Below are positions 46,922 to 47,767 of a DNA stretch of 64,000 bases, one piece after another (the stretch's first letter is position 1; each line of letters opens with the position of its first letter). The DNA lies in assembly GCA_963731265.1 (NCBI GenBank), contig CAVSUE010000001.1, positions 1,760,001 to 1,824,000 on the forward strand. The letters run 5' to 3'. The stretch is from an uncultured Verrucomicrobiae bacterium. Lineage in GTDB: Bacteria; Chlamydiota; Chlamydiia; Chlamydiales; Rhabdochlamydiaceae. The notes under the pieces are model-generated. The model had not been told where the DNA came from, ran no database searches, and worked only from the letters and a program-made list of their open reading frames with translations. Made by a program: the position numbers and the translations under genes.

Positions 46922-47767
46922 ATGAAAATTAGATGCATATATAATCAATGGAAAGATGTTGGGGAAGACATAATACCAAACGACAATAATTCTAAGAGGG
47001 AGTCAGATTTTCATATAGACGTGGGTACTGAATACATTGTTTATGGCTTGACGGTAAGGGATGGAGTGATTTGGTATTACATAGGTCTTGTTGCATAAAC
47101 CAAAAATTTAACCACCGAGCTCACCGAGAGCACCGAGATGAAATCGATCACAAGCGCTATCGCTATCCACGAGGCACAATTACTGTCATATCTTAAATTC
47201 GCTGGTTGTCAAGTAGGGTTACTGATCAACTTTAACGTAAAGTTGTTAAAGAATGGGATCCGTAGAATAATAAATTAATCTCGGTGCTCTCGGTGAGCTC
47301 GGTGGTTTATTACCCATTTATGCAACAAAGCCTATTACATATGCGATAGAGTTTTTACTTATTATCCAAGGTGGAAACCGTTCGTTTTTTTTGATATAAT
47401 TGATTCAAGACTTTCAAGGTTTTGGATCTATTCATGCAAAAAATTGGAAAATTATTCTAAACCTCATCCAATAATCACATTTTCTGAATGGGCAAACAAT
47501 CATCCCAACTTCTACGATAAGCTGTCCGATGGAGATGAAGAAGAAGTGAAAATTTTTAAAGCTTATAAAGAATTAATAGACCTAGAATTTCCCGACTCTT
47601 TAAATTCCGATATGGCTCAAATAGGAGACACCGAATGGTTAATATGTCCCAAGTGTTTGGATGCTTGGAAATCTAATAATGGAAAAGACGCAATGGTAAG
47701 ATGTCCAAAATGCCGAAGAATTTTAAACAATCCTCGTTTTAAGAATGAGTGGCCACACCTTCCTTAA
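46922..47767 (+). pseudogene. Candidate immunity gene D with a C-terminal zinc ribbon, interrupted by a MITE
   Basis: Removing 47084..47341 restores an open 195-aa frame ..IWYYI|CDRVFTYYPRWKP...CPKC...CPKC. Confidence 0.8.
47084..47332. mobile_element. 249-bp non-autonomous IS903-like (IS5 family) MITE carrying a truncated GxxExxY cassette
   Basis: TIRs ggtcttgttgcataaa / tttatgcaacaaagcc. A 9-bp TSD TATTACATA lies at 47075-83 and 47333-41. An internal perfect 30-bp IR (47110-39 / 47278-307) surrounds a 46-aa ORF. Confidence 0.85.

Follow-up and report, generated by a model that had tools for sequence, protein, structure and literature searches.

MITEs that derive from insertion sequences (ISs) by internal deletion are familiar in prokaryotes, with examples such as the Correia and RUP elements, and Tn7, with its TnsA and TnsB proteins, is a known case of a DDE transposase working with a PD-(D/E)xK nuclease. 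The insertion sequence IS903B, of about 1.06 kb, carries a transposase gene only. We describe here a 249-bp element whose family shares with IS903B the NCBIfam transposase model (NF033579), the type of end and the 9-bp target-site duplication, but whose probable parent is 1,564 bp long and holds a GxxExxY gene as well as inverted heptamer arrays inside both ends; unlike IS903B, the copy under study has no transposase gene at all. The GxxExxY/PDDEXK_3 family is very large, with at least 8,000 matches at an E value of 1e-10 or better. PDDEXK_3 is listed with its function unknown in one survey (PMC3424549), and the GxxExxY domain is mentioned beside a CRISPR-like reverse transcriptase in another source (PMC8934634). 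In the literature searched we found no link of GxxExxY genes to a DDE transposase, and searches on IS903 with a MITE or a passenger gene gave nothing on such an element among the entries listed.

The element occupies positions 47084-47332 of the window, the term we use for the whole 64,000-nucleotide stretch that was analysed (positions 1,760,001 to 1,824,000 of contig CAVSUE010000001.1, from an uncultured bacterium placed in the Rhabdochlamydiaceae). The sequence itself and a repeat search both put all of its features at the coordinates given by an earlier, first-pass annotation of the same DNA. In window positions, the locus reads as follows.

46922 to 47083, plus strand: N-terminal half of an interrupted gene of about 195 aa (of a family with a C-terminal zinc ribbon), corresponding to residues 1-57 in homologues that have no insertion (P0001 among them).
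47075 to 47083, no strand: left copy of the target-site duplication, TATTACATA, an exact 9-bp direct repeat that agrees with either flank where the empty site is joined.
47084 to 47099, plus strand: left terminal inverted repeat of IS903 type, GGTCTTGTTGCATAAA, pairing with the right end at 14 of 16 positions and resembling IS903B ends.
47113 to 47139, plus strand: left array of three CACCGAG units (47113, 47122 and 47131) at 9-bp spacing, part of a 57-base stretch that recurs without mismatch at the transposase-side end of an IS remnant.
47135 to 47140, plus strand: internal deletion junction, where GAGATG has 5/6 microhomology with GAGGTG of the intact gene (alignment A1).
47138 to 47278, plus strand: 46-codon ORF, the 3′ third of a GxxExxY (PD-(D/E)xK) gene joined to an array-side ATG, with matches to PF13366 and TIGR04256 and 96% identity to the tail of the gene in genome G002.
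47279 to 47305, plus strand: right array of three CTCGGTG units (47280, 47289 and 47298), an inverted copy of the left array.
47317 to 47332, plus strand: right terminal inverted repeat, reverse complement GGCTTTGTTGCATAAA, equal to the end found 3′ of the GxxExxY gene in G002 and G003.
47333 to 47341, no strand: right copy of the target-site duplication, TATTACATA, an exact 9-bp direct repeat.
47342 to 47767, plus strand: C-terminal half of the interrupted gene; most of its 29 homologues have 183-203 aa, and the best of them covers 99% of the half with 73% identity.

The repeat search scored the outer ends as a pair of 19 nt at 89%, because three palindromic bases of the duplication were counted in, and returned an inner inverted repeat of 33 nt, 97% complementary, at 47110-47142 and 47275-47307. 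These features are not the product of chance, given that exact triple heptamers at 9-bp spacing occur only six times in the 2.34-Mb genome (five of the six within this element family), that the 12-mer end core is found in the genome only at the family's three loci, and that the single-stranded element folds into a hairpin at -61.6 kcal/mol, with a z-score of -12.8 against shuffles. A scan of 46800-47600 against Rfam, at E values up to 1, gave one chance snoRNA match, which lies outside the element. The 46-aa GxxExxY tail is the sole ORF of at least 30 aa that lies wholly inside the element on the plus strand, and no transposase gene is present.

The element is mobile, has been so recently, and has inactivated a gene. 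The genome holds two full copies, the second of which (G000:C1:884556-884802) lies between convergent ORFs; the two differ at 1 of 249 bases (position 2, in the left end) and are flanked by different 9-bp duplications, TATTACATA in the window and GTTCAACTC at the second copy, which answers the first-pass annotation's call to look for further copies with different duplications. The empty allele that it proposed to look for was also found: a 151-nt contig from run X1 joins 47074 directly to 47333 with no mismatch, skipping exactly 258 bases (249 + 9), and nine letters at the joint fit both sides. This empty site is a single contig at a depth of 2.6, and X1 may be the genome's source sample or a strain mixture. 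The occupied left and right junctions are spanned by contigs of X4 and X2, and run X1 contains further flanks at the element's left end. Among the other 18 genomes of the genus no empty site was found for either copy, these species being too diverged at the DNA level. A contig of X2 reads from the right end through 39 bp of flank into the left end again (window 47303-47371 joined back to 47084), which suggests a second copy of the element, inserted 39 bp downstream, in that population.

That the surrounding gene is interrupted, as first proposed, is borne out in two ways. In-silico removal of the element and one copy of the duplication yields a single open frame from 46892 to 47767, and in an alignment with five homologues of about 194 aa the two halves in the window meet at the very site of the insertion, with no gap between them. 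The homologues of the split gene matched no Pfam family above cut-off. The gene lies 2.2 kb downstream of a gene for a 1,695-aa RHS-repeat protein, amid small, partly duplicated ORFs; an immunity role is plausible from this position, and the gene is a candidate only. A Pfam search with the C-terminus of the RHS protein found no toxin domain. The small ORFs downstream of the RHS gene include paralogous pairs, 44726-45139 with 46492-46890 (74% DNA identity) and 45197-45442 with 46279-46488, which matched no Pfam family above cut-off and whose layout looks like an orphan-cassette array. A contig of X1 replaces 722 bases of the window (46853-47576, including the start of the split gene and the MITE) with 1,274 other letters, and G003 (contig C192) matches only window 47576-47800, at 100%; by these two observations the region downstream of the RHS gene varies between strains by cassette replacement.

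Judged by its sequence, the element is a MITE of an IS5-family, IS903-group insertion sequence. The genome's sole match to NF033579 (IS5-family) is a 252-aa ORF at G000:C1:1171186-1171941 (PF01609, E 2e-22). Its PF13737 match begins at profile position 54, in the C-terminal half, and the gene is therefore 5′-truncated. After its stop codon, 57 of 57 bases (G000:C1:1171967-1172023) are those of the MITE's left end, comprising the IS end, the 13-bp spacer, the array and the ATG. Directly upstream of the truncated 5′ end lies a TnpB gene with a Cas12f1-like TNB domain (G000:C1:1169602-1171170; L003/L039), and the TnpB gene may be what truncated the transposase gene. An intact transposase of 319 aa is present in G042, a member of another family of the same order; it matches NF033579 at E 1e-85, and across 96% of its length it shares about 44% identity with enterobacterial plasmid transposases that carry the annotation ‘IS903B family’. 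The IS903B ends in one plasmid record, GGCTTTGTTGAATAAATCG with a 9-bp duplication, are close to the GGCTTTGTTGCATAAATGG of the window element, so that the resemblance to IS903 which the first-pass annotation had put forward, along with its 16-bp ends (paired at 14/16) and exact duplication, is now confirmed. It had also proposed to look for an autonomous IS903-group element with matching ends: a transposase gene with the identical 57-bp end exists in this genome, but that copy is 5′-truncated, and intact composites are found only in other families of the order. This truncated gene is the only cognate one in the genome (an assembly 96% complete, in 2 contigs), so whatever supplied transposase to the two near-identical copies is not in the assembly.

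The ORF at 47138-47278 matches both GxxExxY models above their cut-offs, in agreement with the earlier assignment: PF13366 at E 1e-10 and 42.4 bits (cut-off 22) over profile positions 75-117 of 117, and TIGR04256 at E 4.3e-11 and 43.2 bits (cut-off 35) over positions 74-116 of 116. The 45 residues retained begin at the Lys of ExK and contain neither the GxxExxY motif nor the Asp nor the ExK Glu; the frame falls short of a full-length domain (GxxExxY motif plus D...ExK) and is the remnant of a gene rather than a member protein. For want of the motif and these two residues, we judge the 46-codon ORF to be non-functional, and it cannot encode an active nuclease. It might instead be supposed that the ORF specifies a functional micro-protein, such as a C-terminal fragment that interferes with full-length GxxExxY proteins, and that the element is kept for it. 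The frame is open, begins with an ATG and is identical in both genome copies, as this explanation would have it; that identity, however, is what is expected after recent transposition, the ATG is array-side sequence that starts no gene where the same sequence occurs in the IS remnant, and the fragment lacks the GxxExxY motif as well as the Asp and Glu of the catalytic triad. We regard a retained micro-protein as extremely improbable.

The first-pass annotation had suspected a microhomology junction in a GCTATC GCTATC tandem at 47156-47167; this was ruled out, since the tandem is present in the intact G002 gene and is simply part of it. In alignment A1 the element equals the transposase-side IS end up to 47140 and the G002 GxxExxY gene from about 47139, the two identities overlapping across six bases (GAGATG against GAGGTG), which places the real deletion junction at the inner edge of the left array.

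What the undeleted element probably looked like can be seen in relatives, all of them Chlamydiota (for instance Rhabdochlamydiaceae and Waddliaceae). Two Waddliaceae MAGs contain 10 copies of a composite with the order end, three-unit array, GxxExxY gene on the minus strand, transposase gene on the plus strand, three-unit array, end; 7 of the 10 are 1,564 bp long with perfect, mutually different 9-bp duplications. G042 has the same composite layout and, in addition, an internal-deletion derivative in which both genes are reduced to their 3′ parts, with CTGTTGAAC on both sides. A GxxExxY gene lies near 13 of 80 transposase loci, upstream of the transposase in 12 of the 13, and is full-length in 11 of those 12. 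Ten other IS903-group ISs of Chlamydiota have similar ends, no arrays and no GxxExxY gene. Within the genus of the window's genome the pieces are found separately, and they include a full-length version of the gene, for which the first-pass annotation had suggested a search. G002 has a near-full GxxExxY gene followed by an array and end, 95% identical to the MITE; G018 has a transposase-less form of about 570 bp with the whole GxxExxY gene and a degenerate 9-bp duplication; and G003 has a transposase-side end at a contig break as well as a gene-less form of about 70 bp. On one side of the MITE, contigs of X1 run on into full-length GxxExxY sequence; on its other side they reach the transposase end. 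No intact, contiguous composite was recovered from this genus, and for that reason we infer, rather than observe, the composite parent there.

The 57/57 identity with the transposase-side end, together with the intact 1,564-bp parents elsewhere, is the ground on which we read the window element as an internal-deletion derivative. We are confident that it is an internal-deletion MITE of a GxxExxY-carrying IS903-group IS, one that was probably moved in trans. The parent would have had IS903-type ends, with the inverted heptamer arrays (9-bp spacing) directly inside them and divergent transposase and GxxExxY genes in between. An internal deletion would then have taken out the transposase gene and, at the 5′ side, two-thirds of the GxxExxY gene, leaving the ends, the arrays and a dead tail of 46 codons; this could have happened in one step, or in two by way of a transposase-less form with the whole GxxExxY gene. 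A transposase of the family would have moved the resulting element in trans, both into the gene of about 195 aa, where a 9-bp duplication arose, and into a second site of the same genome.

The first-pass annotation had favoured a nested arrangement, a GxxExxY cassette with inverted repeats of its own inside the MITE, and one may picture accordingly that an independent array-GxxExxY-array cassette, with its own mobility, entered a gene-less IS903-type MITE and suffered the deletion later. The arrays do flank GxxExxY genes where there is no IS903 end, which makes them a hallmark of the GxxExxY gene family: locus L027 of G007 is a full GxxExxY gene between arrays of the same unit and without an IS903 end, and in G046 a cassette with CACAGAG arrays and the tail of a GxxExxY gene lies within another IS of the IS5 family (six copies aligned, at least 35 remnant matches). 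Automatic detection of arrays was strict (three units, no more than 1 mismatch) and overlooked many flanks, so that its number of array-flanked genes is a minimum, and an inverted-repeat scan was added for 20 of 30 GxxExxY loci; flanking inverted repeats were seen at 11 of 20 further GxxExxY loci of the order, 5 of the 11 being heptamer arrays. Gene-less forms with IS903 ends and arrays also exist, in G031 and G003. In the element's own family, by contrast, the arrays sit directly inside the IS ends. Between the transposase stop codon and the IS end there is one array, with the identical 57-bp end and no GxxExxY gene beside it; the arrays of the intact composites bracket both genes; and in the window the arrays stand 10-13 bp from the ends, with no duplication or scar at the boundaries of array and spacer. 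The G007 arrays without IS903 ends and the G046 arrays in another IS lead us to allow some probability to the capture of a separate cassette, but entry of such a cassette into a gene-less MITE is unlikely.

In G046, loci L100-L105 hold the CACAGAG-array cassette with a 3′ remnant of the GxxExxY gene (profile positions 66-117) inside an IS5-family IS that starts TAAGAACCTGTTTAAAATC. This genome has at least 60 PF13366 matches, of which at least 35 are remnants of the CACAGAG-cassette type, and from these numbers the composite seems to have been amplified. G018 has tandem arrays in which a module of array and end is repeated, either at 164-bp intervals or in blocks that include a recurring segment of about 220 bp (G018:C8:26992-27703 and L023, G018:C3:131197-134252).

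It could also be argued that a GxxExxY nuclease, acting on the arrays, is what moves the element, and that its likeness to IS903 at the ends is incidental. Inverted arrays around GxxExxY genes, as well as hairpin copies that have no gene, do recur without any transposase, and G018 (an assembly 56% complete) and G031 have many array matches and no match to an IS903-group transposase. Against this, 9-bp duplications, the signature of IS903, flank every intact copy examined (the window copy, the second copy, G042 and 7 of the 10 Waddliaceae copies), the ends of the element resemble those of IS903B, and the only full-length GxxExxY gene of the genome belongs to a different array type. Movement by the nuclease is, in our estimate, very improbable, and transposition by the IS903-group enzyme is the reading that we carry forward. 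The full-length gene just mentioned (L009, G000:C1:915600-916215) sits between inverted arms of about 80 bp built from CGCAGAG/CGCAAAG-like units; each arm begins with a small palindrome resembling two abutted IS-end cores, and partial copies of the arms are present at about C1:370637-370724, 966393-966417 and 969688-969740.

In the transposase tree the array-bearing composites form one clade (support 99/97) and the G000 transposase falls among the array-less ISs (97/90), which requires either two gains of the module of arrays and GxxExxY gene or no fewer than three losses of it. In the GxxExxY tree, of 26 rows, 12 of 23 inner branches are open, and one capture is not separated from two. The GxxExxY proteins of the divergent elements are 53-74% identical, with dN of 0.19-0.34 and saturated synonymous sites, owing to which dN/dS was obtainable for just 1 of 15 pairs (0.149); at the level of these sequences the comparison indicates purifying selection on the GxxExxY gene in divergent composites. 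No PDB entry matched an intact GxxExxY protein by sequence. Its AlphaFold model (pLDDT 84.4) found weak matches with Foldseek, the best at E 3.7e-3, to the Cas4 protein SSO0001, Hjc resolvases and lambda exonuclease; all of them fell short of E 0.001, and TnsA was absent among the matches listed.

These data invite a further suggestion, which we put forward as speculation and hold to be rather doubtful: that in this IS lineage the GxxExxY nuclease, with the arrays, serves a function instead of being cargo, in which case the transposase-less cassettes and hairpin repeats across phyla would be its relatives or derivatives. The PD-(D/E)xK protein would bind or cut the subterminal arrays, for instance for second-strand cleavage as TnsA provides it for Tn7, or for the resolution of hairpins or cruciforms formed by the arrays. 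The purifying selection, the arrays at both ends beside the transposase binding sites and the fresh duplications at 7 of 10 composites are consistent with such a role. Here an actively transposing IS of the IS903 group has the GxxExxY gene among its conserved components, with the same inverted arrays that accompany the gene elsewhere, and the composite offers a clonable system of 1.56 kb in which to ask whether nuclease and arrays aid transposition or are a selfish, hitch-hiking module. The parent IS is a useful handle on a large and uncharacterised nuclease family. It also explains one way in which the GxxExxY gene and its dead fragments spread within Chlamydiota. A route for the spread of these genes had been proposed from the window element; the route exists by way of the intact composite IS, but does not run through the window copy, in which the gene is a dead remnant.

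Set beside the known systems, the composite is like Tn7 in having genes for a DDE transposase and a protein of the PD-(D/E)xK fold in one transposable unit. The analogy is functional only: no sequence match or specific fold match to TnsA was seen, and GxxExxY genes mostly occur without a transposase. With the array-flanked GxxExxY cassettes, such as that of G007, the element shares inverted heptamer arrays at 9-bp spacing around a GxxExxY frame; unlike in those stand-alone cassettes, the arrays here lie inside IS903-type ends and 9-bp duplications, and those of the parent enclose a DDE transposase gene too. There is also a likeness to the IS-derived MITEs. The element is short (249 bp), has inverted repeats at its termini and a target-site duplication as long as the parent's, lacks a transposase gene, is present in more than one copy, has strong hairpin potential and shares its end with a cognate, 5′-truncated IS copy, and differs from such MITEs in keeping a fragment of a passenger gene in place of a transposase fragment, together with long subterminal arrays. 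The window element itself is an ordinary MITE, and its parent a new variant of passenger-carrying IS.
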